A DNA stretch of 64,000 nt from Candidatus Dojkabacteria bacterium. GTDB lineage: Bacteria; Patescibacteriota; Dojkabacteria; J137. The stretch covers positions 2,431 to 66,430 of the forward strand of contig JAUZRK010000014.1 in NCBI GenBank assembly GCA_030950485.1, read 5' to 3'. A program made the position numbers and the translations under genes. The first letter of the stretch is position 1. The number at the start of each line of letters is the position of its first letter. The notes beneath the pieces were generated by a model, which saw only the letters and a program-made list of their open reading frames with translations, made no database searches and was not told the origin of the DNA. Of this stretch, positions 15,335 through 52,177 are shown piece by piece.

Positions 15335-16741
15335 CTATTGCTCCGCTGACTCGCTCCTTCTCTCTGAAGCTAAGACATAAGTTCTAAAAGTTGAGAGTTT
15401 ATATCCAAATTTGTCTACAAAATCATCAGCGACATCTTTTCCATCTTTATATGCTCTCTCCAGCAATCTATAAATTAAATAGCCAGACAATCCATACTCT
15501 GCATTAAGCTCATTTATGTAGTTCTTTAGCCCCTTCTCTTCATTAATCAAGTTCCAATCTGAAATATTAAAAGCTTTAAGCTCTGTTAGAATTGCTTGAT
15601 TAAGTTCTTCCCTAGCAATCTCATACGCTCTCCTTGAAGGAGCAAATTCACTGTCCGACTTTCTTTTTTCTCTATAGATCTTATGGGCAGTCTTCCATTT
15701 CGGTTTAGCTACATCTAATTCCTCAGTTGCAATATCCCAAGCTTCTCTAAAAGAAGTTTCTCCCGTACCAAATCTAGCATCAATTATTTCCCAATCTATA
15801 AGATTATAATCAAAGCCTCTTTCTAAATTTACAGCTGCTATAATTTCTCTCTGATATGAGCTATCAACTGGAATTATTTCCCGATTATTAGTAAACCATC
15901 TTATCAAAGAAGACGTCGTCATATTTAAGCTATCAAATTCGCTATTTAGTCTTTCAACAATAACTGCTCTAGTAACTCTAACTGTTTCGTCCGACCTTTC
16001 TTCGTAATAATATTTTTTTACTAATTCAATAAAGTGTAAATATTCCTCATTACTTAAAACTATTTGAGGATTACCATTCATATTTTTTTCTATTCTGGGA
16101 TTTACAATTTGCTTAGAAATTAGATTTCTAGAAACCCATACGCTTAAAGAATCACCATTAATACAATTTGACCCATCAGCTTTGCCGTATCTTCCATTTA
16201 ATGTAGCAGCAATTTGATTATATGTTAAAGTTTCTTCTTGATTATATAAAAGAATTATATTATCTATAATATCTCTATACTTTTCATTTCGCGGATTTAA
16301 AAAGGTAGTATAAACTACGTTTGAAAGGAGGATTTCAGTCTGTCGCTCTAAAGCTTTTTCTGTATCTGTTAGCTTTGATCGTAATTTAGGAATAAAGTTT
16401 TTTGTATTAGAAATGTCTTTAACTCTGGCTTTAATATATTCTTCACCTTCAAGATTAAATCCTTTTGAAAAAACTTTCTAGCTATGATAATTAGGTATAA
16501 AATCACTTACCGGTATTCCCAAATCAACTATTATTTCTGCAAGTGATTCATTTGTTAAGTAGTTTCCATCTTCATCTCTAGCATATAAAAATTCTTCCCA
16601 AGTAAATCTATTAGCTGGGCATACTAAGTTATATTCGTCTACTTCATCTACTACCCTACCTATTAGTTGAGATAAGTTATAGCCAGAGTTTTCAATTGTT
16701 GTTGGATCATCAGAATCGTTTACCATAAGGAATAATAACAC
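15335..16741 (-). pseudogene. Hypothetical gene (~469 codons) with an in-frame TAG at 16478-16480. ORFs 16478..16741 and 15335..16081 are one continuous frame.
   Basis: Own translation of 16082-16477 in the frame of both flanking ORFs shows no further stops (...NYHS*KVFSKGFNLEGEEYIKARV...EKNMNGNPQIV...). Confidence 0.45.
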
Positions 16742-16763
16742 ACCTTTGATATATAGCGAATAG

Positions 16764-17042
16764 CTATCTTATCAGATCAATCTCAAACGCTCCCATACCT
16801 CCAGTAAAATACCCTGCTGTTTTAAAATGCTTAACATATTTATGGTTCTTAAGAAGCTTCTCTACAATCGGTCTTACTACCCTACCCTTACCAGTAATAA
16901 CAAGAACTCTTTTATCATTCTTAAGATATGAGTCTTCAATAAATTCGAAAAGATATCTTTCAATATCGTACGGATCTAATTTTCCTAAAAGATGAAAATC
17001 AAACGTAGAATCAGCTTCAAAATTTTCTTCCCACGGGTACAT
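16764..17042 (-). CDS. Smr-domain protein
   Basis: LVITGKGRVVRPIVEKLLKNHKYVKHF matches the Smr signature (xITGKG...L...V...L). Confidence 0.5.
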   Translation of the reverse strand: MYPWEENFEADSTFDFHLLGKLDPYDIERYLFEFIEDSYLKNDKRVLVITGKGRVVRPIVEKLLKNHKYVKHFKTAGYFTGGMGAFEIDLIR

Positions 17043-17045
17043 AAG

Positions 17046-18548
17046 CTAAAAATTCAAATTACCAATTGGTGAACTAGTAGGCGGGTTAGCCTCTTGAATT
17101 GTTATACTTACGCTATTACTGAATTCAGAACACGCATTATCATTTATAGTACAAAGTGTAAAACTATAAGAACCCGGAGTTAGTGTCCAATAATAATTTC
17201 GAGAATCTTGAGTTAACATTACAGAATTTGCACTGTTAGCTGAATATTCTGGGCCATTTAAACCAAGTATTAAGTAATACCCCTTACTATTATCAAAACC
17301 TGTTATATCCCAGCTTAAGTTCGCTCCATTATCATCAGTAGATGCATATAGATTAAATACATCTTTTACAGTAATTACTTCAATTATTCTTGTAACTTTA
17401 AGCTCTTTAGTTGTTTCGTTATTATTTAATGGATTAATAGCCTTAATCTCTATTTCATTTAATCCCTCAGAAAGATCAATCTTATACGTAAACACTCCGT
17501 TTACAGAATCTATTTCTTCATCATTTATCGTTATAATTGCATCTTTTGAGCTCGTTCTACCTGTTATTTCAAGAGTGGGATCTTTAATTTCAAAATCGCT
17601 ATCCTTAGGAGAGGTAATAGTTAAATCTGGTGCTGTTAAGTCAAGATCTAGAGTTGAAGGAAAACCTCTCTTTGATATTGAATCAAGATCTTCGTCTTTA
17701 TCAATTCTAGATAATACTTCTGATCTAAAGCTATCACTGTCGCTTAAGTTTAATGATCTAACATCAATAAAGATTTCATCTAATAGTTTTTGTCTTTTAT
17801 ACCAGCTAGTTATTGATATTTCCTCTACAATTTTTCCCTCTGCAGAAGAGCAATTTAAGCTATCCCTATCAACTTGAGCTAGACTACCTGAAGGGATATC
17901 AATTGTTTCTTCATTACAACCAACTGCTTCAACATTATTTTCTTCTACACTTACAAAAGTCTCTCCACTAAACCTTTCATAAACATTAAAGATTGATTTA
18001 CCTGCAGTTATAGTAGAACTTGAAGCCTCAACATTAATTGTTGAAGACTGAATCCTGCTCCAAATACTACCAGAAAGTAATTCTATGTTTATATCGTTAT
18101 TAGTAAGACTTATAACAAGCTCAGTATTAGGATCAACACTTATAAATGAATTATCAGGAAGAAAAATGTAAGAAAAACTGTTTGTTGCATTTTTAATATA
18201 TGAAGGATTATCCAAGACTATCTCTCCTGCCTCCATTATTTCATAAACATCTTCTTCTGAAGATTTATAACTTATAGTACCCGAGCCTCTTACTAAAACA
18301 ATATCATTCAAACCTGTTTGTATTTGATTAGATTCACCTCCAAACTTTGTAAGAAGTGCTAAAACAAATGCAACTAAGACAATTATTCCAAATATAAATA
18401 TTTTTTTTCTATTATCTGATGCTTTATCTATATATTTATTTAGTTTTTCTCTAATAGTTTTTTTATCAGCTATTAGATTAGCTTCTTCAGAAATATCATT
18501 TGTAATTATTTCTTCATTTGCTGTTGATTTCATTTTTATTCTTTCCAT
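17046..18548 (-). CDS. Membrane-anchored protein with FecR-like beta-sandwich domain
   Basis: TM helix near residue 50, then the IVLVRGSGTISY...ELLSGSIWSRI pattern typical of FecR domains. Ser/Asp-rich linker. Confidence 0.45.
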   Translation of the reverse strand: MERIKMKSTANEEIITNDISEEANLIADKKTIREKLNKYIDKASDNRKKIFIFGIIVLVAFVLALLTKFGGESNQIQTGLNDIVLVRGSGTISYKSSEEDVYEIMEAGEIVLDNPSYIKNATNSFSYIFLPDNSFISVDPNTELVISLTNNDINIELLSGSIWSRIQSSTINVEASSSTITAGKSIFNVYERFSGETFVSVEENNVEAVGCNEETIDIPSGSLAQVDRDSLNCSSAEGKIVEEISITSWYKRQKLLDEIFIDVRSLNLSDSDSFRSEVLSRIDKDEDLDSISKRGFPSTLDLDLTAPDLTITSPKDSDFEIKDPTLEITGRTSSKDAIITINDEEIDSVNGVFTYKIDLSEGLNEIEIKAINPLNNNETTKELKVTRIIEVITVKDVFNLYASTDDNGANLSWDITGFDNSKGYYLILGLNGPEYSANSANSVMLTQDSRNYYWTLTPGSYSFTLCTINDNACSEFSNSVSITIQEANPPTSSPIGNLNF

Positions 18549-18581
18549 ATTAGATATCTTACTAAATTAATAATATGTTTA

Positions 18582-21500
18582 CTATCTGCTGATTTCATTA
18601 ATCATTACTTTAGCAGTCTTCCCAATACCAAATACATCTGGTGAATACATTAGATTTACTTTTGGAGGATTAACATTATATTCTCCACTAAAAGTAGCTC
18701 TTGTTAAATATTCATATTTATAAGCACCTTTTGGTAGATTGCTCATAAGTAACCCAACTCTATCTCCTAATAATCTCTCTCTAGTTATAAGATAACCTAA
18801 ATTAGTATAACTATTATTACTTATATCAGAATTTCTTGCAAAGTAGTTATAGTCATTATCAATTTTACTCTTTAAAGATTGATCTACTGTACCTAAATTA
18901 AAATTCACTAATTCATAACCAGCAGCTATTGGAGCCTCAACTAATACTTGTGAATAATCTCCCTCGGATATTATATATAAAGTATGCTTTATTATATCTC
19001 CTTCTTTAATATTTTCAATAACTCCATCTATTGATTCAATTTCTTCAAAGATAGTAAATCCATGAGAAACAGGTCTTATATCACTAAAATCAGGATAGGT
19101 ATTTAAGTTCAATCTGTAATATTGATTATGATTAGAAAAATTATATAGCGTTAACTCATTTAACTTATCTAAATTCCCAACTGTCAGGCTCTCCTCACTA
19201 CATTCAATACAAATATCCTTATTATTCAATAACGCACTAAATTTAATATCTCCGTCAATTATTTCATCTCTATCAATTCTATAGTTAGAAACAGTATTAA
19301 TAACTGATGCTACAGAGAATGTTGAGTAGTTATTGTTTTCATTATCTCTTAACCACATCATTCCCTTTTCAGTTAATGAATCGTAACCTCCATCTCTAAT
19401 TAAAGTTAGTAATACAGTTGCTGTAACATTCTCATTCGAGTCAGAATAATAGTAAGTACTAGAATCATTTGATTCCCAATAAATTAAGCCTGCACTTAAT
19501 GTTCCAGAATTAATTAAATCATTCATTAACTCGTCATATCTTGAAGAGTTTTTATCCAAAGACATAACTAGCCAAGCTTTAGCGCTATTATCATATACCT
19601 TATCGTAAATATTATTTATCAGTGATTCAGTAGATTTTGATTCATACAAACTAGTAACATATATTCCTAAAGCTCTAGATGTAAGCGTAGTAGAATTTTT
19701 GTCTGTCTTTAAGAGTATTTCTAATCTATCTACTCCTTTATTAACAACTGTACTACTAACGCTAATGCCATTTCCCTCAGCAATATATAAAGCGTAAAGT
19801 GCATACGCAGTATTTTCAATATTTGCTTGAGAATATTGCTTATTCCAGAAATCCCAGCCTCCAGATGAAAGTTGTAGATCATATAATTTACTAACCAAAG
19901 CACTAACTTCTTTATCATTCAAACCATCTAAATCATTTAGGTTTCTAAGTCCTAAATATGAAATCAATTTTGATGATGTTTGGTCAGTACAGTAGTAATT
20001 ATATTTAGTAATATATTCCTTCTCCTGACCAATATTTTTTGCAAGTGAAGGAGTAACCTCTAGATCTAAATTAGAATAAATAGCATCATCAGATACTTCT
20101 ATTATCTCAGTAGCGCTAAAATTAAGTTTTCCTGTGGTACTATTCGTCTCATAATGAGTAGCAAAATTTAAAGGTATTTCTTTTAGTACTGAGTCTAATT
20201 TTTCTTCCCCTTTATATAAGTTAAACTGAAATTTAACTAATGGATCTGTACTTGTAGCTTCTATAGCTACTTCATAAATTTCCCCTTTATTAGCAGCTAT
20301 TGTAATCGGCTCTGTTAATAAGACTTCTTCATTTCCAGATACATTTGAAATTATCTCAATTGAAGCATCAATATCTTTATCTGTATTATTCTGTAGTAAA
20401 GCACCAACGTTAAGCTTATCTCCATATGTCACAAATCTTGGTAGACTTGGAAATATTTGATAGTTAAGATTAGATATAATCTCTACTTTCTCTTGTCCAA
20501 AAAGATCTTCACCGCTACTAGCTTTTGCCACTATTACCCATGTTGTTAAATTGTCAGGTAATTCAAAATCTAAAGTTGCTTTACCATCTTTTCCAGTTTT
20601 AATTTCTGTCTGCCAGAAAGCCGTATCTTTAAATTCTTTTCTTGTGTCTAACTCATCAAATAAATTTGTAGATCCTCCTCCGCCTCCACCCTTGTCTCCC
20701 CATACAAGGTCTTCTCTAACTTTATCTATACTTAATGTTAGATTGTTACTTGAAGCAATATTGTACTCTCTTAATTTGTACATTACTTCTAATATGTTCT
20801 TATCTCCTATCAAAGCTAAATCGAATAAAGCTTTATCTACTACCGAAACAGTAACTCTTGAGTCAATATTTACTCCCTTTCTTGAAGTATTTATTTTCAG
20901 TTCGACCTTATCTCCCGGCTTATAACTTTTTTTATCTGAATTAATATCAACATCTAGCTTTTTATCTTCAAAGTCTACAACCAGTTCAGTAGTACCAATT
21001 CTAAAATCAGCTTTATTGCTAGCTGATGAGTTCTGTCCTTCAACAATTACACTAGTTAAGAAAATATTAGGAACATATTCTTCCTTAATCTCCTTATTTA
21101 TCTGATAACTAGGTGAATCTGATTTAACTACTTCATATTCTAGTATGTTATCCCAACTATAAATATTTAATAAATAAGCACTATTAAAGTTAGTACTAAT
21201 ATTTAGTTTTGCTATATCAGAAACACTATAAGCATTTTTATCTTTTTCAATATCAATTTCATGACTATCACCTAATTTATAACTATAGCTATAGTAATAA
21301 GGATCATATGCTCTAAATAAAGCTCTACTAACTTCAACTCCATTTCAAAAAACCTTTGCTACATATAAGCCTCCACTTGAAGGTATGAAATTTACAGAGG
21401 CCTTTCCATTTGAAGTCCGTAATCCTTCTTCGTATAAATATATATCATCAAAAATATATTCATAGTAAAGTCCTAAGCTGGAATCTTCTGTTCTTACCCA

Positions 21501-24500
21501 ATCTTCATTTCGCTTGTAGAACGCTACAGTAAAATTTGAGTCAACAGGATTAGAGTTAGTATCCAATGATACATAATCTATATTTAGCTCCTCTCCAACT
21601 GTATTAAAATAACTAGAGAATCTATAACCAAGTTGAATATCTGAATTTATTACTTTTATATCTTTCGAAGTAATAACTACTTCATTATTAATATCTATTA
21701 TTTCAGCATAAAATGTATTTAGCTGTAGGACATATTTAGGATCGATAGTTGAGTTAAATCTAATGATTGCCTCGCCATTCTCGTCAGTTCTTGCTTCTCC
21801 TTCAAGTACTATTTCACTTTCAAAATCAGATACATTTTCACAATATAAATAACAATACATATACATATCAGAAAGATCATCGGCCAGTTTATTGGTAAAA
21901 CTATAGTCGGAGTATTCTGGAATTGATGTAAAAGTGTCTCTTAATGTTATTTTCCAATTTACTTCTGCATTTGAAAGAGCCGCACCGCTAAAATATCTAC
22001 TATTTAATTTTATTTGAACTTCTTCACCAGTCTGAGCTATATCATTTGCTTCAAGCTCAACATAAAAATCTTTCTTCTTATAGTCTTCTACTAAAAATTG
22101 AGCGCTTGTATTGCTTGCGTCTGCTACATCAATAAAAAACTTAACTCCTTCCGAACCTTCTGGAATTACAAATGAACCATTAAATTCTCCGTTACCATTT
22201 AAATCATAATTTTTCTTAATACTGTCTAAATTTATACCATTAGCATAAATATTTAATTTTACTGAGTCGGAATTAAATTTAGGATAGCTAGTTGGAAAAC
22301 TAGAAATTGGATAACTAGTAGCACTTTCTCCATCATTAGGAACAACCATTCCTGTATCAGTCCATTCTCTAACGTAACCTTTAAAATTAACAGTGTCTCC
22401 AGGCTTATATAAAGTTCTATCAGTATAGACATACGCAATTATTGGATCTAGTGTTGCTCTACCTTTTGGATACCAGTATCCTCCCATTCCATTGCTCCAA
22501 TTTGAATCTAATATTCCAAACCTACCCTTATACTCAGCATAAATAATCAAATCTTGCTTAGAGTAATTATTTCCGTGATGTAGTCCTTTTGAAAGTAAGA
22601 CTCCGTCAGAACCAGTAGATCCTAAGAATGATCCATTACTTAAATATATCTTTGCCCCTGAGACAGGTTCACCGCTAACTGCATCTACAATCCAAGTTAG
22701 ATCAGATGTAGTTCCCTGATGTAGTGTTAATGCAAGAGATGAATAATTTATAATCTGTAAGTCTTGGTCATTTATTATCAACATATATACACCTTCGCCC
22801 TTTGTTTTATCAGTAATATCTACTTTATATTGGCTTGTTTCATTAAACTACTCTTTATACATTTCTGAATTATCAACGCTCCAAGAGCTAATCATTGAAC
22901 TACTAAAGTAGTTTGCTAGTTCAGCAGTGTTCATGTAATTACCGTTCTGAGAATAAATATACCCGCCGGATTTAAAAGTATTTGGGGATAGCTTATATAA
23001 TTTATAATTAAAGCTTGAATAATTTGTACTACTAAACCATACTTCCAATGGATTTGATGCGTTGTACATCGCTCTTTCACCTCCTACAATTTCAATACTT
23101 GGGTCGTAATCTTTTGTTTTATAAGAAAAAGATACTGGATATTTTAATCCTAAACCATCAGCAGAATTTCCATTTAAAACTTGAATATTATAGCTAGTCG
23201 AAGGTTCATTATAACCCTTTAATGATACATATCTATCGCCACTATACCAATATGATTCATCTCTAGTTAAAGTCTTACCATTTACTAAAATATTACCGAC
23301 AAGACTATCTACATTCATTTCAGTAGTAAAACTAATTGAGGGTTCACTATGATAAGCAAGTCCAGTTGAATCATTAATTGAAACGTTTATATCTGCTTCA
23401 GGATAATCAACAGTCGAAAAAACTACTCTTCTTTCTTCGCCTAGTGGAGAATTTGTTTCTAATGCTCTTAAATCTCCACTAAAAATAATTTGATAATTAG
23501 TTATTGGGTTTAAGTTAATACCTGGTTGAATGTATATATAATTAGAAGAGCCTTTAGTCTCCTGTGAAAGAATAATTTGAATATCGTATCCTTGATTATA
23601 TTCAGGCACTAATTTAATTTTATTAATATCAAGCTGAACAGCAACATTAAATTCTATAGAAATTCTTTCTGAAAGACCGTATCCTCCGCCTAATGAATTT
23701 TCTGATAAAAGAATAGGTTTCTCTCTTTCAATACTCCATTCGAAAGGTTCCTGCATCTTTAAACCGTCAGTTGATTCTATTAATTCATTATTAACATTTA
23801 CGGTATAAATATAACCTAGATCAAATCCATTTGATGGTCTAAATCTTAATGTTGTAGTTGAAAGCCATTCGTATTCACCTTCAACTTCAGGTGTGATTGT
23901 AACCGGAATCTCCTTTTCTTGTTGATCATCGACACTTGCTAGAGATGTCACAGGTTTGTTAAATGTAATAATAATATCCTGATTTTTTTCTTTTAGTATT
24001 TGAGGAGTATTAATTATTACCTCTGGATATGTAGTTGTCTCGAATTTGAATGATTGGATCTTATTTTTAATATCATTATTTTCTATAGTTACCTCAGATT
24101 CTGTTGCAAGTTTTAATGATTCATCAGGGATTAAAATTAGTTTATTTTCTTCCCACTTAGCTTCATAATCTATTTCAGGTGTTATCTCAATACTTTCCTA
24201 AAACTCATCTCTGATTTTTACAACACCATTAAGATTTATTTCAATTGATGAATCTATAGGTACTTCTGAAATATTTCTTCTAGGGGAAGATCCTGTTAGA
24301 TAGATAGTGTCCAATTTTTTCTCAAAACCAAAAGTATCTATATTTATTAGTGAGGTCAAAAAGAAAAACGAAAAGAATAGAATTGAAAAACCAACGATAG
24401 GTCGGCTTCTTTTATTATTAACTTTGTTTATAATTTTAGAATTCCTTATTCTCAAAGCTAGACTTGTAATTCTTGCTTTTGCGAATTTGATAATAGAAAT

Positions 24501-25025
24501 TAGAAAACGAATATGTGTAAGAGGATTAAGACTCTTCTTAAACTTTTTTTCTTTTAAGTTTTCAAACAAAGAAACTATTACTAATACTAAAATTACAGCA
24601 AGTATAGAAATAACTGCTACAAATGCAATAGATTGATCATAATTCTCAATTGCTAGCTGTGTTAGAAAAATAAGCAATATAATACTTGCAGAGTATGCTG
24701 GGTATTTAATAGTACTTTTAAGTAAATTCCTATAGATTATAAGAACGATAAATGTAAGGATTAAGAATAATACTATTTGAGTTAATAGCCTCTCATTATA
24801 AGTATTAAACGAAGTTTGATTAAACTGATCAAACATTCTGACGTAAACATAAACTGTAAAAAATACTCCTAAAAATTTCAGTATATTAAATTTATTAGAT
24901 TTGATTTTTTGATACGTTACTCTCGAAGAATTAACTAATTTATTTTTAATTAAGGTAAATGTAGTCTTAGATTTTTCAATGATTCTACTAACACTAAAAA
25001 ATTCTTTAAAATTGAAAGTCTTCAT
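18582..25025 (-). pseudogene. Giant alpha-2-macroglobulin-family protein (~2148 codons, N-terminal TM anchor) interrupted by three in-frame stops: TAG 24198-24200, TAG 22848-22850, TGA 21345-21347
   Basis: All four ORF pieces share one frame. Own translation across each junction and across the ORF-free stretch 20814-21344 shows no other stops. Signature TAFWQTEIKTGKDGKATLDFELPDNLTTWVIVAKA (A2M MG-domain motif). Thioester-like YNYYCTDQTSS (CxxQ retained). Gly6 hinge. Confidence 0.6.
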
Positions 25026-25098
25026 ACGAAAAAGTAACTTATATAAAACTGGGGCTTTATACCCGTATTATAGAGACAATTGTTCCATTAAAAAAGTG

Positions 25099-27121
25099 TC
25101 AATTTTTTAAAGGGTTATAGTCGAAAGTAATGTTCTGACAATCTGTAGTATCTTCAAATCCTTGATTAAAGCTATTGAAGTCTATATTACTGCTAGTATT
25201 AAACTTAACAATATCATCACTACAAATAGTAATTTTCAAAAGTTCTGAATAATTAAATTCATAATCATTCGCTGTGACTAAATTTATAGAGTAATTCCAA
25301 ATAGGTGCTGCTGCTACAGATCCGTATAGTCCATCCATTTCTCTTCCTAATGAATTTCCAACCCAAACTCCAACTATATATTCTGGGGTATATCCCATAG
25401 TAAGAGCATCTTTAAAATTTTGTGTAGTTCCAGTTTTAGCAGCACTGGGAAAGCTAGTTCTTAAAGAACTTAATGAACCAAATTGATCCCTTCTAGCGTC
25501 ATTATCTGAAAGTATATTTGTAATCATCTGAGTTATCGCTACTGTATTCTCTCCAAAAATTTTGCTACTATTTTTTTCTTGCTTATGCTCCCAAATTATA
25601 GTTCCACTACTGTCCTCTATCCTATCTATCATATAAGGTGTAGATAATTCCCCCTCATTTTGAAATAAACTGTACGCATAAGTAAGAGCAAATAAACTTA
25701 CTTCACACGCTCCAACAGTTGCAACTATTCCACACTCACTCGCACTATTTATGCTACCAAGCCCAACTTGTTTCATTAAATCTATAAAACTCTCAACCCC
25801 CAATCTCTCTGTCATTATCATAGCCGGGAGATTATATGAATTAGCTAATGATAATGTTATAGTCTGTAGCCCATGTTCTTTCAAATCTGCGTTATGGGGT
25901 GTAAAGTCCTCGCCTTTAACTTCAAAGATTCGTAATTTATCTAAAATTACTGATTGAGGTATGTATCCTTTATCAAATGCCAGCGCGTATAAAAACGGTT
26001 TTAATGTTGATGCAGGTTGAATTAGACCAAGAGAGTGATTGTATTCTCCATTATTTTCTTTGTCAAAAAAATCTACAGAGCCTATCATTGTAATAAGTGC
26101 TCCATTATTATCTGTAATAATAACTGCTGAGTTGTTAGCTCCTTTCTGTTCTAATTCTTTCATTTGATTATCAAGGAAAGTAAGTATTTCCGAATGTACA
26201 CTATAATCATAAGTAGTATAGACTTTTAGCTCAGTACTTAGATCAATTTCCAATTCTTTTCTAATTTCATTAACTTCATCATTTACCATCATTGAAAAAT
26301 GTGGGGCTTTTAGCAGATTAATATTTTCTTTTATAAAAAGTTCTTCCTCTATAGCCGACCTAAATTCTACTTCAGTAATATAATCATTTTTTAACATCCT
26401 TTCTAAAACTAAGTTCATTCTTTTAAGACCTAGCCCCCAAATCTGCATATGGATTAAAAACTGAGGGCTTATTTATCACGCCAATCAAATAACTACATTC
26501 AGTAAGACTTAAATTTGAAGTTGTTTTGCCAAAGTACGAGTTAGCTGCAGCTTCAATACCATAATTCAGATTTCCAAAGTTAACATTGTTAAAATACATT
26601 TCTAGAATTTCATCCTTAGAATATTCTGAATTTAATTTAACAGCATATATTGTCTCGTCTAGTTTTGATTTAAATGATCTATCAAAATAACTCCCTTCCG
26701 ATATTTTTACTAATTGCTGAGAAATCGTGCTTCCGCCTCTATCTTGGCCAAATACGCCATCTAACATAGCTCTTTAAACCCCCTTCGTACTTACGCCAAT
26801 ATTATTGTAAAAACTTTCATCTTCTGTCGATACTAAAGCGTTTATACAATTTTCAGGAATCTGATCGAATTCAATTGGAAAGTTTTTAATTGGTTCATCT
26901 TCAATTACTCTTAATGAAAGCTCGCCATTTCTATCGTAAATCGCAGTTGAATTATCGTAGTCAGTATTCAGTTCAAAGTCATAATTCATGTATCTGTAAA
27001 CAAAATATATAGATGGGAAAAGTATGAATATATCAAAGAATATAAATAGAATGACTAATAAATATTTCTTATTAATTTTACCTCTAGCTGAGTTGTATTT
27101 TTCTATCACTTTTCTTTTCAT
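25099..27121 (-). pseudogene. Class A penicillin-binding protein (GT51 glycosyltransferase + transpeptidase), disrupted by an in-frame TAA (26774-26776) and a +1 frameshift in a G5/C5 run (26434-26438)
   Basis: GT51 motifs EDESFYNNIGVS...GGSTISQQLVK...NPYADLG. If one G is removed, translation reads through as ...DLGLGLKRMNLVLERMLKNDYI (PBP linker). Transpeptidase SxxK / SxN-like motifs downstream. Confidence 0.65.
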
Positions 27122-33642: not shown

Positions 33643-34372
33643 ATGAAAAATAAAACAATATTACTTTGTGGTGGAAATGGTGAGTTAGCTAGAACTTATT
33701 ATAAAACCCAATCCAGATAATCATTTTATTCTAGTTGATATAGATAAAGAACCGCATTCAGATAGTAAATACTTGAGTAACTTTAGTTTTATCCAAGCAG
33801 ATATTACTAACGGTGAGGAGTTAGAAAAGAGAATCAAAGGTAATATTTCTAACTTAAAAATTGATAGTATTTTACTAACTCCAGCCTATAACTCTCATCG
33901 ATTACTCAAAGATACTGCATATGACGAAATCAAGACAGCAATTGACCGTAAAGCTATAGGATTCATTAACTTAGTAAAATCGGTTCTAAACCATTTGAAT
34001 TCAGGTGCATCAGTAGTATTTATAGGATCAGTCCATAGCCTAAGCACAAAGGATAATTCGTGTGTATCATACTCAGCTGCGAATGGTGCAGTAATTTCCT
34101 CAGTAATTAACTTAGCTATTGAATTTAAACATTTGTATAGATTCAATGTAATTTCACCAGGAGGGTTCGTAACTGAAAACTATAAAAATACATACTTAGA
34201 TTGGAAAGATAAACTAAGAAAAAAGACTGCATTTCCGATTGATAGTATAATAAATACAATTGAATTTTTATTTAGTGATATGAGCTATGGTATTTCTGCT
34301 CAAAATATAATAGTAGATGGAGGGCGATCAGTTATGAGATGTAGCGCTGCAGATTGGGAGCTTAAAGTATAA
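33643..34372 (+). pseudogene. Short-chain dehydrogenase/reductase (SDR) with a frameshift near 33700-33715
   Basis: ATG 33643 frame encodes MKNKTILLCGGNGELARTYYKTQSR*. The +1 frame continues NPDNHFILVDIDKEP...(ORF 33773..34372) with the catalytic region. Removing one base in the aaaaccc run restores ...YYKTNPDNHFILVDID. Confidence 0.5.
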
Positions 34373-34518: not shown

Positions 34519-35199
34519 ATGCCTGTTCTATATTCTACAAATGGGAATACCCATAATAATTCCCAAGACGAAAGTAAATATATACTACAAGAGGATACGC
34601 CCGAACAATCTGTTCAACTTATAACTGCACATCTAGACAATTTAAGTGAACAGGGAGTTCCAGTTACAACTCTTTTACACCACCTTACAAATGATATTGG
34701 CAGAATTGCAGTAATTATTACAGGTTCTAACTCGGAATTACAATCTAGTGATAAAAAAATAGCTTTGAATCCAGAACGAGTAAGGGTAATACTAAATGCT
34801 GTAGAAGCAAATAAAAAAAGATATTCTTACCTAGATGAAATTCAAGACTATGCTGGTACGAGCGATTCAACTGTAAACGCGTGGAGAGAATGTTCAACTC
34901 TTGCTCATACCTATCCGTTTATCGTAGCGCCTGGACATACTATGAGAATAATACCTTTTAATATCGTTACCGATGAAGCTGTACTTCTCGATAATATATG
35001 TAGCGGAACTGCAATTGGTAGACACTGCTCAGAGATAGCTAGAAACAAAAATAATCCTGACTATGAAGGCTATTATAGGTTACTAGACTGGATAAGAATT
35101 AGTGAAATCTTTGAGCAAAATACAGACCTATTTTCTGAGTTACCGGAACTTGGTTTTCAAGTTATGAAGTTTAGTGAATTAAATGCAAAGTCAATTTAA
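34519..35199 (+). CDS. Hypothetical protein. It may continue through two in-frame TAA codons to 35445.
   Basis: 226-aa ORF. Same-frame downstream sequence IKGEYPYTWIE*PVEVGTNPDFIWFIKNEKLIDFNPRVAGRGNEKQQAIEREVEKLRLIQRYAPEFDLAINDAELWPISSK has no start codon of its own. Confidence 0.35.
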   Translation: MPVLYSTNGNTHNNSQDESKYILQEDTPEQSVQLITAHLDNLSEQGVPVTTLLHHLTNDIGRIAVIITGSNSELQSSDKKIALNPERVRVILNAVEANKKRYSYLDEIQDYAGTSDSTVNAWRECSTLAHTYPFIVAPGHTMRIIPFNIVTDEAVLLDNICSGTAIGRHCSEIARNKNNPDYEGYYRLLDWIRISEIFEQNTDLFSELPELGFQVMKFSELNAKSI

Positions 35200-35580
35200 A
35201 TTAAAGGAGAATATCCATATACATGGATCGAATAACCAGTTGAAGTAGGCACAAATCCTGATTTCATTTGGTTTATAAAGAATGAAAAGTTAATTGACTT
35301 CAATCCTAGAGTTGCTGGGAGAGGAAATGAAAAACAACAGGCAATAGAGAGGGAAGTCGAAAAGCTTAGATTAATTCAACGATATGCTCCTGAATTTGAC
35401 CTCGCAATAAATGACGCTGAGCTTTGGCCAATAAGTAGTAAATAAAGCTCGAATATTCCGACTCAATTCTTATACTTTCAATTCCCGTTTAATTGAAATG
35501 TAAGTTTTATAGTATACTTTTATCTAGAAAAATAAATAAAATAGAATTTTTGTTTAGCGAGAAAAGTATTAAAATAAGTT

Positions 35581-40783: not shown

Positions 40784-40786
40784 ATG

Positions 40787-40900: not shown

Positions 40901-42423
40901 ATGAGTATAGTAGAATTGGAACCAGATGCTGTAGAAATGATACAAGCAGAAAACATGAAGAGATATGAGCAACTTAGGAATGTTCCTGGTAGCGCAGACG
41001 GTGAAGGACCACCTGTAATTGATATATTAGGAGAGTCTTCTGAAGCAGAAGAAGATAGGAAGAATGTATTTAAAGCAGTTAAACATAATCTAGGTAAAGT
41101 AGGTGAAGATTTCTCTAATAGTCCAGATTATGATCCAGAATCAATTACTAATCAAGAATTAGTAGCTAGAAGATTCTTTAATCTACGTCAAAAATTTGGA
41201 AATGACTATATTAGTGAAATTGTTTTGGAAGATATAAATTCACCTAAGTACTGCGTCGTTAATCAAAGAGCAAATTTAATGCAATATCCAATTGCAATTG
41301 ACGACTATGGCGATTATCCATATCAATTTGATTTCAGAGAAGGATTAGAACCAAATGATTGGATACTGGGTATTTTTGACGGAGTTAATGCAAACGAGGC
41401 TGGTCTTATTGTAGCTAAAGCAGAAGTTGGAAAGGGAGATATTAAAGAAAAGTGGGCGTATATCAGAACTCATAATAAAGAAGGTTGGATTAGAGAGGAT
41501 GACTTGGCGATGAAAGAAAAAGATGAAATAGATTTTGATCCGCTAAGACCTGCTAAGAATCAAGAAAGATTAGGCGAAAATTTTGGGGTTGTAGTAGAGA
41601 TAGGGCTTAAATATGATCCTATCCAAAAACGATTAGTATCAGTAGATCCATTTAAAACTAATGATAAATTAAAAAACGATCAAATAGATAAAATTGTAGC
41701 TGGTGGAATGCTTGAAGATATTGGAGACGGAATAGCAGAAAAGGGTGAAAGATCATTATTATCTTTAGGTGATCCTATTAAAATTATTTCTGAAGTTGAA
41801 GAAGATTTTTTAGTTGAACTAGCTAACGGTAAACAATATCTATTAGATAAGAATTATCTAAATAGAGGCTACTTGGAGAAAACTCCAGAAAATTTTAGAA
41901 TGATGCTAGAAAAAGCAATTGGAAATCCATATTCGTGGGGAGATGGAGATGGAATAAATTTTGATTGTTCCGGACTTACAGAAAGAGTTCAAAAAGCTTT
42001 TGGTATTGCAAGTGGAGCTGGAAGTGACGCTCAGACATTGGAAACGATTTAGGATTAGTGTATAGAGGAATGGATGTAGATTTTCTTCCTGCAGATGTTA
42101 ATGAACTTATTAACCTAGGAGTTGATATTGACAAGTTAAAAGGTAAATTCTTTTTAGTAGGAATTGAAGGAGCTCATGGTATGTTTGGAGAAATAAATGA
42201 TGATGGAAAAATTCTCTATTATCATTCTATTGGCTATACTACGGATATGAGTAAGCTGCGAAAGTTAAATAATGCTGAAACAGAGGCTGATCATCAAATT
42301 AATCCTACGACTAAGTTCTTTAGAGTAAATAAAGAAATACTTGTTCCCCTAAATAGTCAGGAAGAAGGTTTTAATATAGCTATCAAAGCTAGAAACAGAA
42401 GAATGGCAATTTTAGTAGTGTAA
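40901..42423 (+). pseudogene. NlpC/P60-family cell-wall hydrolase with SH3-like N-terminal region, split by a frameshift near 42040-42057
   Basis: ORF1 ends NPYSWGDGDGINFDCSGLTERVQKAFGIASGAGSDAQTLETI* (Cys motif). ORF2 in the next frame continues GLVYRGMD...GKFFLVGIEGAHGMFGEINDDGKILYYHS (His motif region). Inserting one T in the attt run joins them. Confidence 0.5.
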
Positions 42424-42442
42424 TTAAAACAAGTCTTAATAA

Positions 42443-42472: not shown

Positions 42473-42555
42473 AACTTTCCTTGAATCATATCCCTAAAAC
42501 AATGTATTATGAATTTGACTCTGAATGAAATTTCTAAATATTAAGATAACTAACC

Positions 42556-46119: not shown

Positions 46120-46162
46120 TGGTTAGTTTTTAGTGGTTAGGGATTAGGTTGATTAATGATGG

Positions 46163-46216
46163 TAACCAGGAAGATTTTGAAAATGTAGGGGTGGGTTTCA
46201 AACCCACCCCTACATT
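46163..46216. terminator. Perfect 24-bp palindrome (ttttgaaaatgtaggggtgggttt c aaacccacccctacattttcaaaa); bidirectional terminator between dnaE and ppa
   Basis: Arms are exact reverse complements. T-runs on both strands. Confidence 0.7.
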
Positions 46217-46217
46217 T

Positions 46218-46799: not shown

Positions 46800-46882
46800 T
46801 ACTAAATTTATAAGAAATTAAAATACTTTGTTGTAAGCTTAATGCACAGAAAGTATACTATAAAGAAGTAAAACTTAGAAGA

Positions 46883-47491
46883 TTGATGAATTTTAAATTG
46901 AAACATACGATTATAATTATTTTAGGGCTACTAGCAATAAACTTGCTTGTACTTATAGTGTTTCTATTAGTTAAGAATAGTGATATCGGAGATGATGTAT
47001 TTCAGAAAAAAGGAGAAGTTAATACTGAAATATATAGTGAAGAGAATTACGATAATGCTCTAATAAAAGAATATCCTTTAAATGAATACTTAAACTTCGA
47101 CTATACTAAATTTTATATTGTTCATAGCGGAAATATTATCGTTGGTATTGAAGGAACAAGTTTAAAATTTAAATCAGAAGATCAAATAGAAATTAGCTCT
47201 GGTACTGTTTATATTGAGACAACTTCACCTGGATTCACTATTGTAACTAAATTTGGAACTATATCTCTAAGAGATGAAACTTCTATAGTACTAGACCTTA
47301 TTGAAAACAAATTGGTAACAATACAAGGTGAGGCTCAATTTAGAGATAAGCTAATTCCAGCTGGTAGAATTGATAAAATTGATATTGCTGAATATGAAGT
47401 AAGAGACATTGGAAAAGTTAGTAACTTAAGAAATGATCAAATATTTAGTTTATTAGGTTTTCTTGAGGTATTAAAAATTGATATTGATTAG
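46883..47491 (+). CDS. Membrane-anchored hypothetical protein (possible FecR-like beta-sandwich)
   Basis: N-terminal TM helix, then beta-rich repeats. Confidence 0.35.
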   Translation: MMNFKLKHTIIIILGLLAINLLVLIVFLLVKNSDIGDDVFQKKGEVNTEIYSEENYDNALIKEYPLNEYLNFDYTKFYIVHSGNIIVGIEGTSLKFKSEDQIEISSGTVYIETTSPGFTIVTKFGTISLRDETSIVLDLIENKLVTIQGEAQFRDKLIPAGRIDKIDIAEYEVRDIGKVSNLRNDQIFSLLGFLEVLKIDID

Positions 47492-47572
47492 GATACTACA
47501 TATGTAGTATATTAATAAAGTCATGCTAGAATATCTAGTGTTCAGAAATAATTTAATTATTAGTATTTATAT

Positions 47573-48313
47573 ATGTTGAATAAAATCCCAGCCTGGGTAT
47601 ATATAGCTGCAGTAGCTATTATCGGAGGAATATTAATTATTGCCTTAGCAGCAACAAAAGAAGATTCATTAACTTTAGCAGAAGAAGATTCTGTAGCAAT
47701 TGCTGAAGAATTAAATTTAGATATAGATAAATTTAAAGAAGATATGGCTAGCTCTGAAATAAGCGATTATGTAGAGAGCGAAAAAGCAAGAGGAGAAGAG
47801 AGAGGTGTTACAGGAACACCTGCAATTTTTATAAATGGGGAAACTTACGAAGGAACTCGAAGTTATGAAGCAATTAGTTCTCAGTTAGAGAATCTTTTAG
47901 ATAACCCTATAAATGATGAGAAGCCAACTTTTGAGGTATATGCTGATTTCAATTGTCCTAATTGTGCAGCATTTGATCCTCTAAGGTTATTTTTATCAGA
48001 CAATTATGGTGATAGAGTAGAATTTATAAGCTTACCTTACCCGTTCTTAAGAGATTCTTCTTTTGGATATGCTAGGGCATTTGAAGCTGCGAAAAACCAA
48101 GGAGCAGGAGATATGTTTGAAAAAGCTTTATACTCAAAATTATTCCCTGACAGGGCTGACTATGACTCATTTAGTTTAGATGATGAAGTAGACACGACTA
48201 ATGTTGAAGATAATGAAGGCGTTGTTACAAACGAAGTTCCAGTACCAGGTTTTGAAGGTGTTGAGGAAACAGTTGTTAATACAGACTCAAATTCAGTAAA
48301 AGTTACTGAATAA
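47573..48313 (+). CDS. Membrane-anchored DsbA-like thioredoxin-fold protein (CPNC active site) with apparently permuted segment order
   Basis: FEVYADFNCPNCAAF (CxxC). The GVTGTPAIFINGETYEG segment, normally C-terminal in DsbA, precedes the CxxC. Asp/Glu-rich C-terminus. Confidence 0.45.
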   Translation: MLNKIPAWVYIAAVAIIGGILIIALAATKEDSLTLAEEDSVAIAEELNLDIDKFKEDMASSEISDYVESEKARGEERGVTGTPAIFINGETYEGTRSYEAISSQLENLLDNPINDEKPTFEVYADFNCPNCAAFDPLRLFLSDNYGDRVEFISLPYPFLRDSSFGYARAFEAAKNQGAGDMFEKALYSKLFPDRADYDSFSLDDEVDTTNVEDNEGVVTNEVPVPGFEGVEETVVNTDSNSVKVTE

Positions 48314-48334
48314 TAAGTATTTTTCAATCTTTAA

Positions 48335-48365
48335 AGTGACCGCTGTTCAGCGGTCACTTTTTTGT
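48335..48365 (+). terminator. Intrinsic terminator
   Basis: aagtgaccgctgttcagcggtcactt hairpin followed by tttttg. Confidence 0.7.
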
Positions 48366-48395
48366 TATAATAGCTTTGAATAAATTAAAATATAT

Positions 48396-49139
48396 ATGCG
48401 AAGATTTAGATTCTATAACGAAAGACAAAACTTAAAAATAGGATCAAGTGTACTTATAACTAAAGATGAGGCTGAACATATACGAAAATCACTTAGACTA
48501 ACTAAAGGTGATACTATCTATATATTTAATGGCGAAAAAGAGTTCAAAGCAGAACTCACTAGATCAAGAAACAATTTAACTATGGCAAAAATAATTGAAG
48601 AATATAAAGAAACTAAAGCCTATCAAGCTAATTTAACTGTTTTCCTTGCTTTAAGTAAAGCAACTAGTTTTGAATATTCATTAGCAAAGCTAACTGAAGT
48701 AGGAGCTAATAAGATAATTCCTGTAAAAACTGAATACAGTATAGTTAATCTTGAAAACAAAGTAGATAAGAAATTGGTCAGATGGCAGAAGATTTTAACT
48801 GAAGCAAGTAAGCAATCAGAAAGAATTGATGTTCCAGTAATAACAAAGCCTATAGAATTTAAAGATATTGAAAAAGAAAACCTTGCAGAATATAGCTCTA
48901 CTCTATTTTTCACTACTAAAGAGGAAGAATATAGCGAACTAAATGATGTTAAATTAGGCGAAGATATTGCTATTTTTATTGGTCCAGAGGGGGGATTCTC
49001 ACCTAATGAGAAGAAGCATGCAAAGGAAAACCTAAATTTAGAGTCTGTAAGTTTAGGATCTAATATCCTTAAATCTGATACTGCAGCTGTTCTAGCTTCT
49101 GGTTTAGTACTTTATCTTTCTGGACTTGTTGCACACTGA
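48396..49139 (+). CDS. rsmE: 16S rRNA (uracil1498-N3)-methyltransferase RsmE
   Basis: MRRFRFY...EAEHIRKSLRLTKGDTIYIFNG and C-terminal GPEGGFSPNE match RsmE. TGA stop. Confidence 0.7.
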   Translation: MRRFRFYNERQNLKIGSSVLITKDEAEHIRKSLRLTKGDTIYIFNGEKEFKAELTRSRNNLTMAKIIEEYKETKAYQANLTVFLALSKATSFEYSLAKLTEVGANKIIPVKTEYSIVNLENKVDKKLVRWQKILTEASKQSERIDVPVITKPIEFKDIEKENLAEYSSTLFFTTKEEEYSELNDVKLGEDIAIFIGPEGGFSPNEKKHAKENLNLESVSLGSNILKSDTAAVLASGLVLYLSGLVAH

Positions 49140-49145
49140 GATAAA

Positions 49146-51293
49146 TTAGTCTTTCCTAAGTAAACTAGCCCTCATCAATCGTATTTCATTATAACTATAA
49201 TTATCTCCTAAAAATTCCTTTATCGGAGCTAGTTTCTGCTTACCGATTTTTTTACATGCATCTAAAATCTTTTTTTGTTTGTCTTTTGGGACCAGTTTGA
49301 ATATATCAATATCCTCACCTCCTAAATATGCCTTTTCTAAATGAGAAATTACTGTAAAAACTTTAATTCCTCTATTCTCTACTATCTCTTCTGGACTTAG
49401 TCCTTTATAGAATAAAGAAGCAGTTTCATCAATTGTAGCTGATCTAGAGATACCTCTAGTCCTTTTTTGCTTTATTGGTATTGGAACTGATCTAACATCA
49501 TTCTCTTCACAATAAAGTTTTATTTCCTTAATAAAATCTTTACCGTAATCATCAAATTTCTTTTGTCCTACTCCTTTTATACGTTTAAATTCTATTCGCT
49601 TTTGAGGAAAGTATTGAGCCATTTCTTTAAGAGAGCTGTCCTGAAAGATAAGATATGGTGGAACATCTTCTCTGTCTGCTATCTTTTTTCTTATAACTCT
49701 TAGTCTATCAAATAAATTTGTATCAACTTCACCATCTAATAAATCTCTTTTTAATGTCATTTGTTGTCTAATTTTATGTAAAACTACTTGTTCACCTCCT
49801 TTTAAAACTAATGATGCTTTTTGAGAAAGTCTTAGAACAGGATATTTATCCTGACTTAAAAGTAAATATCCTTGTTGGATAAGTTCTTTTATATATAACT
49901 GTAAATCCCTAACATTAATATCTGTAATGATCTTATACGTTGAAAGCTCATCATGAGCTAATTCTTTGATTTTCTTTGATTTAGAACCTGTAAGAATTTT
50001 TGCTGTATGTGTAACTCCAAATCTTTGATCTAATTTATAAACACAGGACAATACTTTTTGGGCAAGCTCAGTACCGTCAAAATCTTTTAATGGATCGATA
50101 CAATTATCACAAGCTTTACAATTACCTTTACTATATTTTTCATCAAAATACTCTAGTAGAGCGTGCCTTCTACAAACAGAGCTTTCAGCAAAATTTAGAA
50201 GCATTCTTAGCTGGAATCTCGCAACTTCTACTTCACTCTCATCTTCCATTTGTAAAATAAAATATTCAATTTTTGCTTTATCTCCATAACCAAAAAATAA
50301 AATACAATCACTTACCAGACCATCTCTTCCTGCTCTACCTGTTTGTTGATAATATTGTTCTATGCTCTGTGGAAGATCATAGTGAATCACATATCTAACG
50401 TCAGGTTTATTTATACCCATTCCGAAAGCAGTAGTAGCAATAATAATATCTACATCATCTCTAATAAACTTCTCTTGATTAGATTCACGTTCATCACTGC
50501 TTAAACCGGCATGATAAGGTAAAGCCTTAAATCCGTCTACTTTCAATGATTCTGTTAATTCATCTACTTGTTTTCTACTAAAACAATATATTATTCCTGA
50601 TTCTCCCTGTTTACTATTTATAAATTCTAATAGTTGAGCATATACCTGAACTTTTGGTTTAATATAGTACTTTAAATTTGGTCTATCAAAGCTAGTTGTA
50701 TATGAATTATTTTCTTTAAAGCTTAGTTGATTAACTATGTCTTTCCTTACTCTTTTAGTTGCAGTAGCAGTTAAAGCAATAATTGGAACATTTGGAAAAA
50801 TAGAACGTAAAACACTTAGTTTTCTATATTCTGGTCTAAATTCATGTCCCCATTGGGAAATACAGTGAGCCTCATCAATAGCAAACAAGCTGATATTTAA
50901 TTTTTTTATAAATTCTAAAAAATCTTCTTGAAGTAATCTCTCAGGTGCTAAATAAAGTATAGATATTTCATTAGATCGAAGCTTTTTAAAGATAGTAGAT
51001 CTTTCCTCATCTGAAAGCGTACTATTTTAAAATGCCTCCTTTACCCCATTCTGAAGAAGACTATCTGTCTGGTCTTTCATTAATGAGATTAGAGGAGAGA
51101 CTACTATTGTTAACCCATCCTGAACTATTGCGGGTATTTGGTAACAAAGTGATTTTCCACCTCCAGTTGGCATTAATACAAATGTATCCTTTTTGTCTAA
51201 TACATCATTTATAATTTCTTCCTGTGAAGGTCTAAATTCAGTATAGCCAAAGTACTTTTCTAAAGTTTTATAAATATCTTCTGTTGTTGACAT
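49146..51293 (-). pseudogene. recQ: ATP-dependent DNA helicase RecQ interrupted by one in-frame TAA (51027-51029)
   Basis: Upstream piece ...[15 protein letters not shown]...LQNGVKEAF*. Same-frame continuation NSTLSDEERSTIFKKLRSNEISILYLAPERLL...FAIDEAHCISQWGHEFRPEY. Helicase, RQC-like Zn (CxxC) and HRDC regions intact. Confidence 0.7.
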
Positions 51294-51469
51294 ATAATCA
51301 GGCTCTGTTAAAAAATCAATTTTAAATTGACAGGTAAGCTTTAACTTAAATTCTACTATCTTTTAATTAATTTAGCAGGTTAACGATATAAGCTCGTAAG
51401 AAATTTGAAAGAATATAAAGTCTAATTTTGTATGAATTTTTATTTCTTATTCATACAATATCATAAACG

Positions 51470-52177
51470 CTATCTTAATGCTTGAATACCTAAGTTAGGA
51501 TCATTAATGATTACATAATCTATTCCTATAGAAGCTAGTTCTTGCAGCCTCTCTAAGCTAGTCTCTCCGGCAGTCCTTGGCTCTCTAGTACCAGTAGTAA
51601 CAATTACTTTACCGTTTAACTGATGAATTCCTTCAACTCTACTTTTGGTGACATGTTTATCCCATAGTCTATAGAAGCTGCCCCTATATTTTAAAAAATC
51701 TATATAACCATCTGGATCTTGATCTAAACCTACTATTTCTACTTTTGAATGATTCTTAATAAGATGATTTATTAATTTTTCTTCTCTTGCTCCGACCAAA
51801 ACTCTCGAATTATCAATTTATTTTAATTTAACAATTTCAAGCGCTTTATCTACTAGACCAAGGCTATCTTGCTTTAAATCAAACATAAGTTTACCTTTAA
51901 ATGTATTTATTTTTTCTATTATATCTTCAAACCTAGAAATCAAAATATCTCCATTCTCATCTATTAGGTCCTTAAATGATTCATAATTTAAATTTTCAAC
52001 ATCTACTCCATATTTTTCCCTAGCAGTTTTAGAATGAGTACATAGAACGATCCCGTCACTACTTAAGCAAAGGTCTATTTCTAAAACATCCGGTAATAAT
52101 TTTATTGCTTCAAGATATGATCTTAAAGTATTCTCCTTATATTTTGCTGAATAACCTCCATGAGCTATTATTTTCAT
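51470..52177 (-). pseudogene. Glycerophosphodiester phosphodiesterase (GDPD) with one in-frame TAA (51818-51820)
   Basis: N-terminal piece IIAHGGYSAKYKENTL...EIDLCLSSDGIVLCTHS and C-terminal piece ...IGIDYVIINDP are in the same frame, separated by 6 codons and one TAA. Confidence 0.55.

Follow-up and report, generated by a model that had tools for sequence, protein, structure and literature searches.

Single-base lesions shared by two Dojkabacteria assemblies: context-dependent consensus errors or recent gene inactivation?

The window analysed here, a stretch of 64,000 nucleotides from an uncultured Candidatus Dojkabacteria metagenome-assembled genome (MAG) belonging to the CPR, raises the question of why conserved genes should be interrupted by single in-frame stops or one-base frameshifts while their frames otherwise remain open: the sequence may be wrong, the genes may have died recently, or the organism may decode through the lesions. 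Our results lead us to put at roughly 55% the probability that the 13 lesions, mostly or in their entirety, stem from consensus errors left uncorrected in the MAG. Overall, 10 in-frame stops (among about 19,000 codons and in seven genes) and three frameshifts interrupt nine of about 56 genes (Table 1). Direct translation upheld the seven minus-strand stops and the three single-base frameshifts reported by a first-pass annotation, and also established the two plus-strand stops of an orphan gene that it had listed as merely possible. One additional lesion, the TGA of the DUF1028 gene, lies outside the range that it covered (15335–52177); its estimate of about 8 of about 60 broken genes was sound as to the genes being broken, with the count now standing at nine of about 56.

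Table 1 Interrupted genes in the window and the position of each lesion.
Gene	Position	Strand	Codons	Lesion
DUF1028 + TPR gene	8788–9678	+		TGA 9559–9561, between DUF1028 and second TPR repeat
Hypothetical gene (one continuous frame)	15335–16741	−	468	TAG 16478–16480
A2M-like gene	18582–25025	−	2,147	TGA 21345, TAG 22848, TAG 24198; no indels
Class A PBP, PBP1C-like	25099–27121	−	673	TAA 26774–26776; frameshift in G5, 26434–26438
Short-chain dehydrogenase (SDR)	33643–34372	+		1-base frameshift in AAAACCC, 33703–33709 (one base extra)
Orphan gene	34519–35445	+		TAA 35197–35199, TAA 35233–35235
NlpC/P60-type hydrolase	40901–42423	+		1-base frameshift in GGAAACG, 42040–42046 (one A missing)
recQ	49146–51293	−	715	TAA 51027–51029
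Glycerophosphodiester phosphodiesterase (GDPD)	51470–52177	−	235	TAA 51818–51820

After each stop the frame stays open for 115–920 codons, where non-coding sequence at 31% GC would be expected to contain about one stop per 13 codons, and the first possible start codon lies 46–177 codons from the lesion stops; the continuity of the frames therefore exceeds chance. Shine-Dalgarno sites were tried as a means of separating adjacent same-frame genes, and no such motif was found upstream of the genes, the organism being devoid of it there. The affected genes have intact catalytic motifs, are colinear at full length and display no further decay. That conserved sequence flanks the lesions on both sides, as had been claimed, is borne out by Pfam domains, PDB alignments and ORFs of relatives, all of which continue across. 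The orthologue comparison put forward in the first-pass annotation returned sense codons and uninterrupted ORFs for the PBP and A2M-like genes in the nearest relatives (L004 and L005), which encode an intact single-ORF PBP followed by an intact single-ORF A2M. Merged across its three stops, the A2M-like protein of 2,147 amino acids (aa), for which the best homologue in a first search had only 25% identity, is colinear with the intact 2,090- and 2,132-aa orthologues of these relatives, in agreement with the earlier remark that the gene is free of indels. The relatives carry Ile at TGA 21345, N or F at TAG 22848 and E or N at TAG 24198.

The PBP frame is restored by deleting one G from the G5 run, and with G4 restored the protein reads ...NPYADLGLGLKRMN..., with a length equal to the relatives (whose single-ORF PBPs measure 661–662 aa, versus 673 aa for the merged protein of the window). 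The Pfam Transgly domain, residues 78–242 of the merged protein, covers both the stop and the frameshift, and in 120 homologues the column of the stop is occupied by L, I, A, V or F, a hydrophobic profile that points to TTA as the ancestral codon. In recQ, the Pfam DEAD domain (21–183) covers the stop, gap-free alignments to PDB structures of RecQ run through it, and the stop coincides with the conserved Leu of the segment ...AAFLNSTL... in solved RecQ structures, implying a change from TTA to TAA, that is, from TTTTTAAA to TTTTAAAA. Pfam TPR_19 (236–289) covers TGA 9559, across which consensus-TPR chains in the PDB also align, and adh_short (4–184) covers the frameshift junction in the repaired SDR protein. 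The catalytic Cys motif of the NlpC/P60-type hydrolase lies upstream of its frameshift, and a putative His region (GAHGMFGE...YYHS), proposed by inference rather than from an alignment, would follow the shift in the alternative frame.

Another MAG from this strain and project, the sister MAG GCA_030949735.1 (locus tag Q9M91; matching contig JAUZSD010000009.1), provides a direct comparison over 55.1 kb of aligned sequence, in which the two differ by 6 substitutions and 30 indels; the MAG paired with it has locus tag Q9M76 (proteins MDQ69856xx). All 13 lesions of the window are present in the sister MAG in identical form, although the two are separate assemblies with different contig boundaries. 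Within coding sequence, the indels are all frame-breaking in the sister MAG, where dnaE is broken twice by such private indels, and none is frame-breaking in the window across 55 kb. The 30 private frame-breaking indels of the sister MAG therefore indicate that the data of this project are error-prone and that the errors are mainly indels. Four of the six substitutions are synonymous third-position transitions, and the A2M-like gene contains four of the six; the latter excess was considered as a sign of relaxed constraint and rejected, being too large for neutrality alone. Because the cluster adjoins private indels of the sister MAG, it may be a patch of low quality or else a tract exchanged by recombination. 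Outside the two MAGs, a search for close relatives found no protein of at least 90% identity, a scan of genome contigs for close relatives returned no match, and an exact-pattern scan of JGI metagenome contigs across the recQ stop returned 0 matches.

The sequence context of the lesions was quantified as homopolymer content, namely the number of positions in runs of at least 3 within a 15-nt window. Controls yielded 3.5 (background) and 3.3 (simulated random nonsense mutations), and the six inter-MAG substitutions 2.7. The private indels of the sister MAG, which are proven errors, reached 5.7 (P = 2e-5), the shared frameshifts 6.3 and the shared in-frame stops 6.7 (P ~1e-4 versus simulated nonsense mutations; 8e-5 when matched by stop type, and from 2e-5 to 1e-2 over other parameter choices). 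All stops except one reside in a homopolymer-rich context, an enrichment of about 18-fold, and at 6.7 versus 2.7 this context is unlike that of ordinary polymorphisms. The first-pass annotation had held that substitutions to stops argue less for error than homopolymer indels do; because the stops share the homopolymer-rich context of the demonstrable errors in the sister MAG, they favour error too.

The three stops with an inferable ancestor (recQ, PBP and A2M-21345) all replaced a Leu TTA codon by a change of its second base, and all are located at junctions of a T run of at least 4 with an A run of at least 2, a context shared by just 4.6% of all 561 TTA codons. Lesion 21345 (T7A3 to T6-G-A3) is the same type of event as a private error of the sister MAG at 22200 (TTT[G]AAA), and a single base gained or lost in a run adjoining another run suffices to mend each of the three frameshifts. 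The position of Leu TTA codons at T-run/A-run junctions, together with the homopolymer context, favours context-dependent consensus errors. A search for a motif shared by the stops, including methylation-type motifs, turned up only TTAAA, a consequence of the TAA codons. A junction-shift test proved powerless, 7 of the 10 stops being revertible by moving a run boundary versus 77% of simulated nonsense mutations; the stops at 16478, 22848 and 9559 are not simple junction shifts.

We propose that the genome was obtained with a platform that miscalls around homopolymers, either long-read or flow-based. Where short runs abut (T-run/A-run, T-run/G or A-run/C-run), the consensus would gain or lose one base, yielding the three frameshifts, or alternatively, at constant length, a run boundary would be moved or a wrong base inserted, such that the error has the appearance of a substitution. 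Of such substitutions in a coding frame, about half would, at a T/A junction, create TAA from Leu TTA or Lys AAA. Under this scenario the genes would be intact in the organism, with nothing read through or recoded. Random errors cannot be shared between assemblies, so these errors would have to be systematic unless the two assemblies share reads, and errors that depend on context would recur in both assemblies of the strain. Several observations count against consensus errors: all 13 lesions recur unchanged in the sister MAG; over 55 kb, frame-breaking differences private to the window are absent; the lesions comprise 10 substitutions and 3 indels versus 30 indels and at most 6 substitutions for the demonstrable errors; the long A/T runs in coding sequence (42 of 7–9 bases and 347 of 5–6 bases) are all in frame, an unexpected result if the platform miscalls short runs; 9 further occurrences of the T5A3 context are uncorrupted; and the stops have no shared motif. 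As a weak counterargument, the clearly essential AsxRS, GrpE, DnaE, PPase, RsmE and YchF genes are all spared (P ~0.1).

Of the three explanations entertained by the first-pass annotation, assembly error and recent pseudogenes both stand and read-through or recoding is unsupported. A serious competitor, to which we nevertheless give somewhat less than an even chance, is that the lesions are real and represent the very recent inactivation, by nonsense mutations and 1-base indels, of dispensable and mostly envelope-related genes (A2M with PBP1C, NlpC/P60, GDPD, recQ, SDR, DUF1028 and two orphans), through relaxed selection or drift in a small episymbiont population and with transient misalignment (dislocation) during replication at run junctions as the mutagenic process. 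Every lesion occurs in two separately assembled MAGs; the synonymous third-position transitions suggest two real populations; the window consensus gets every long homopolymer right and lacks private errors; the lesions are mainly substitutions, unlike the indel-dominated errors of the project; the stops occur in proportions (TAA:TAG:TGA = 5:3:2) that fit the random-substitution expectation of 49:23:27%; and the orthologues of relatives are intact. A change of T5A3 to T4A4 agrees with dislocation mutagenesis, an established mechanism. Multiple hits per gene (A2M 3, PBP 2 and orphan 2; P = 0.13) and the sparing of essential genes (P ~0.1, the window holding too few such genes) would also point this way and are non-significant. 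Against real lesions stand the approximately 18-fold enrichment of stops in the homopolymer context of proven errors, unlike the inter-MAG substitutions, and the noise evident in the sister assembly. In real pseudogenes, frameshifts usually equal or outnumber nonsense mutations, making the 10:3 ratio of nonsense to frameshift lesions unusual, and 10 neutral nonsense mutations would imply about 200 substitutions yet just 3 indels. Larger deletions, IS elements and eroded motifs are absent, coding density is 90%, and 15% of the genes would have to be freshly dead, for which we know of no precedent in a CPR genome. It is only tentatively that one can envision a CPR episymbiont population in which some 15% of the genes, the A2M–PBP1C envelope-defence pair, recQ, NlpC/P60 and GDPD among them, have been lost very recently via misalignment-type point lesions mainly at run junctions. 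Improbable is a mixture in which error accounts for the frameshifts and for some of the junction-type stops while a few stops, for example those of A2M, are real: the three stops that are not simple junction shifts and the four inter-MAG substitutions in A2M would fit it, but no sequence feature divides the lesions into two classes, all stops but one are homopolymer-rich, and the A2M differences may mark the low-quality patch of the sister MAG beside its private indels.

Even less credible is that the lesions are decoded, with stop read-through, reassignment or suppression and programmed frameshifting producing full-length proteins. Clean frame flanks every lesion on either side, catalytic motifs are preserved, and some CPR lineages, namely Gracilibacteria and Absconditabacteria, do reassign TGA to Gly (genetic code 25) and likewise have in-frame stops inside conserved genes. 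Unlike in code 25, all three stops are affected here, each a few times and at only about 10 sites that are not spread over most genes, and all three still terminate ordinary genes (TAA 27, TAG 18 and TGA 11 among 56 genes); the ancestral residue, where inferable, is Leu rather than Gly or Trp. No common downstream context or motif accompanies the stops, and the tRNA genes of the window, tRNA-Thr(CGT) and tRNA-Gly(TCC), include no suppressor. Regarding programmed frameshifting, G5, AAAACCC and GGAAACG have nothing in common and present no orthologue-conserved feature. Recoding is rejected because all three stops are normal terminators and because the nearest relatives have sense codons and unshifted, intact ORFs at the lesion sites; there is no evidence for a new decoding mechanism, whether the lesions are errors or real.

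The preferred explanation, consensus error, has a known counterpart: residual long-read consensus errors reportedly truncate predicted proteins, as Watson and Warr are said to have described in 2019. Like long-read or flow-based consensus errors, the lesions are single-base events at homopolymers in otherwise intact genes, and the sister assembly of the project exposes the error process directly. By contrast, indels normally make up nearly all such errors, which are worst in long runs, whereas here substitutions prevail at 10:3, long runs are called correctly and a second assembly has the lesions too. Salmonella Typhi, Yersinia pestis, Sodalis and Mycobacterium leprae are pseudogene-rich and recently host-restricted. 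As in those genomes, many genes of the window have one to three point lesions where the orthologues of relatives are intact, and dispensable functions may be preferentially hit; conversely, the window lacks IS insertions, deletions and eroded genes, its coding density is very high, nonsense lesions exceed frameshifts and lesion positions follow homopolymer context. If the lesions are errors, this MAG and GCA_030949735.1 would be unfit, before read-level polishing, for pseudogene counts, gene-content comparison or genetic-code inference, and length-conserving miscalls at run junctions could mimic nonsense mutations in AT-rich genomes. If they are real, they would offer a rare view of an ultra-small CPR bacterium as a wave of gene inactivation begins, with a distinctive homopolymer-linked mutation signature informative on population size and lifestyle.

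The remaining interrupted genes add minor observations. In the 468-codon hypothetical gene, to which no Pfam family matched, the TAG is followed by 132 codons that bear a coding signal and precede any start codon. The orphan gene has a segment (35236–35445) with a high coding score and without any ATG, GTG or TTG, and its sole match among 1.84 billion representative proteins was its own 226-aa N-terminal product. A Ser_hydrolase N-terminus merged by hand was discarded, as the same nucleotides were used in two frames. For GDPD, the PDB alignments end short of the stop, and both sister MAGs carry an annotation for its 119-aa N-terminal fragment.

Ten in-frame stops and three one-base frameshifts interrupt nine otherwise intact genes of the window (GC 31%; about 57.5 kb of 64 kb coding, in 56 genes). 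Translation across ORF junctions bore out every lesion listed in the first-pass annotation, but its tally was slightly low: it had missed the TGA at the second TPR repeat, outside the range it covered, which pushes the lesion-bearing region upstream of 15335. Among the Pfam matches, Transgly (78-242) covers both lesions of the class A, PBP1C-like PBP, and DEAD (21-183) and adh_short (4-184) extend across the recQ stop and the frameshift in the short-chain dehydrogenase (SDR), respectively; RecQ structures align over the recQ stop without a gap. Downstream of the stops, 46-177 clearly coding codons precede the first possible start codon, and the segment 35236-35445 holds no possible start at all, so the post-stop pieces cannot be independent genes. 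At each of the three frameshifts, a one-base insertion or deletion within a run that borders a second run restores the frame. The gene at 34519-35445 (308 codons) is an orphan, its sole match among 1.84 billion representative proteins being its own 226-aa N-terminal product.

Lesions in the window, from translation across ORF junctions except where another basis is given
Lesion	Gene or context	Position	Strand	Other basis
TGA	gene 8788-9678	9559-9561	+	position 6 of clear second TPR repeat after DUF1028
TAG		16478	-	
TGA	A2M	21345	-	
TAG	A2M	22848	-	
TAG	A2M	24198	-	
Frame change	PBP, G5 run	26434-26438		
TAA	PBP	26774	-	
Frame change	SDR, AAAACCC	33703-33709		
TAA	orphan gene 34519-35445	35197	+	
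TAA	orphan gene 34519-35445	35233	+	
Frame change	GGAAACG	42040-42046		
TAA	recQ	51027	-	
TAA		51818	-	

Comparison with orthologues, as the first-pass annotation had suggested, was run for PBP and the alpha-2-macroglobulin-like gene (A2M), and both are uninterrupted, in the same operon, in the two nearest relatives, which are Illumina-derived Logan contigs (L004 and L005; PBP 46% identical). Their PBP is a single ORF of 661 and 662 aa (673 aa when merged here) and their A2M, directly 3' of PBP, a single ORF of 2090 and 2132 aa (2147 aa merged); the A2M proteins are mutually only 28-35% identical, indicating fast evolution. The two genes form a conserved pair (window 18582-27121, minus strand; L004 10001-18282; L005 8634-16998), mirroring the yfaS-pbpC pairing in Proteobacteria. 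The recQ stop matches the conserved Leu of AAFLNSTL, and the column of the PBP stop holds L/I/A/V/F across 120 homologues, of which Leu (TTA) alone is one step from TAA. At A2M 21345, where both relatives have Ile, the likeliest origin would be Leu, through TTA to TGA; the columns of the remaining A2M stops (E/N and N/F) carry no information on the ancestral codon. All three determinable ancestral codons are thus Leu TTA with the second base changed, and all three sit where a T run of at least 4 meets an A run of at least 2, a context shared by 4.6% of 561 TTA codons in a test chosen post hoc, after data inspection, and therefore to be read with caution.

Exact protein look-ups identified the MAG as Candidatus Dojkabacteria (CPR/Patescibacteria). 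The region is present in two sister MAGs in NCBI, with locus tags Q9M76 and Q9M91; a literature search found no paper on these assemblies. The 275-aa A2M fragment of the window has an exact copy in Q9M76 (contig of 66,650 bp) but not in Q9M91, which makes Q9M76 the most likely source. Compared with Q9M91 (GCA_030949735.1, contig JAUZSD010000009.1, 111,788 bp) over 7049-62179 (55.1 kb), the window differs at 36 sites, comprising 6 substitutions and 30 indels. Wherever an indel lies within a gene, the frame is lost in Q9M91 (twice in dnaE) and kept in the window, so Q9M91 is clearly error-laden. Q9M91 nevertheless shares all 13 window lesions, and over the 55.1 kb compared no frame is broken in the window alone; the lesions are therefore not random errors of one assembly but are real, or systematic errors, or the product of two assemblies with shared reads. 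A 2.8-kb part of A2M (21697-24536) holds four of the six substitutions and two of the 30 indels, a cluster explained either by locally poor sequence in GCA_030949735.1 or by a recombination tract or variable region.

Homopolymer context was scored as the number of positions in runs of at least 3 per 15-nt window. The mean was 3.5 over all positions, 3.3 for random nonsense mutations simulated in the same genes and 2.7 for the six inter-MAG substitutions, as against 5.7 for the private indels of Q9M91, which are proven errors (P = 2e-5), 6.7 for the shared in-frame stops (P about 1e-4) and 6.3 for the shared frameshifts. The stops' enrichment, about 18-fold, holds when matched by stop type (P = 8e-5), over other window and run-length settings (2e-5 to 1e-2) and with the seven firm stops of the first-pass annotation only. 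In context the stops thus resemble the proven errors rather than ordinary substitutions; lesion 21345 (T7A3 to T6-G-A3) moreover has a counterpart in a private error of Q9M91 at 22200 (TTT[G]AAA).

We therefore favour context-dependent consensus errors, at a probability of roughly 0.55. That the lesions mark genuine recent pseudogenes is a tentative but serious reading: both assemblies carry them, and the contig ends of the two differ; of the six inter-MAG substitutions, four are synonymous transitions at third positions, the pattern that true polymorphism between two populations would give; and none of the 42 coding A/T runs of 7-9 bases, and none of 347 runs of 5-6 bases, is in error in the window, which rules out a crude consensus from nanopore data alone. 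Indels moreover make up most of the errors visible in the project (30 versus at most 6 substitutions) and substitutions most of the shared lesions (10 versus 3), the T5A3 context has nine further uncorrupted occurrences, and TAA:TAG:TGA at 5:3:2 fits random-substitution expectation. Clearly essential genes are spared (P about 0.1) and several lesions fall in each of A2M, PBP and the orphan gene (P = 0.13), though neither trend is significant. Dislocation (misalignment) mutagenesis swaps the last base of a run for its neighbour, and would also yield the run-end replacements. Against real decay stand the context enrichment, the excess of nonsense mutations over frameshifts, the lack of further visible erosion and a coding density of 90%. 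A mixture of errors and real mutations seems improbable. Read-through or recoding, which the first-pass annotation had offered, is rejected as highly implausible: all three stop codons end ordinary genes (TAA 27, TAG 18, TGA 11), the only tRNAs within the window are tRNA-Thr and tRNA-Gly, no common motif was found around the stops, and the relatives' PBP and A2M are open throughout.

Other regions may bear additional lesions. In 10246-11116, the Ser_hydrolase ORF (10613-11116, plus strand) has neither a first beta-strand nor the HG/PG motif; a TAA in its frame (10577-10579) stands where RBBP9 has the conserved Gly of 'PGNGGG', and at a C5 run just upstream (about 10558-10562) the coding frame seems to switch from ORF 10246-10629, so that one or two lesions may lie here. 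Single stops separate same-frame ORFs at 6245-7600 (plus strand; 142 aa, then a 307-aa GrpE with an unusually long N-terminus) and 16764-18548 (minus strand; 500 aa, then a 92-aa Smr protein). Each pair may be two distinct genes or one gene with another in-frame stop; Shine-Dalgarno sites do not separate the two readings, since none of about 25 start codons inspected has a Shine-Dalgarno-like purine-rich motif upstream, where the sequence is merely AT-rich. Near 29.5 kb, cumulative GC skew reaches its minimum and gene orientation diverges (minus strand to the left, plus to the right), a pattern that resembles a replication origin, though without dnaA nearby. At 409-2289 (minus strand), a class II Asp/Asn/Lys-type tRNA synthetase (tRNA-synt_2, anticodon OB fold) is fused at its C-terminus to a tRNA_edit domain of the YbaK/ProX type (PF04073, residues 494-614), an unusual combination.
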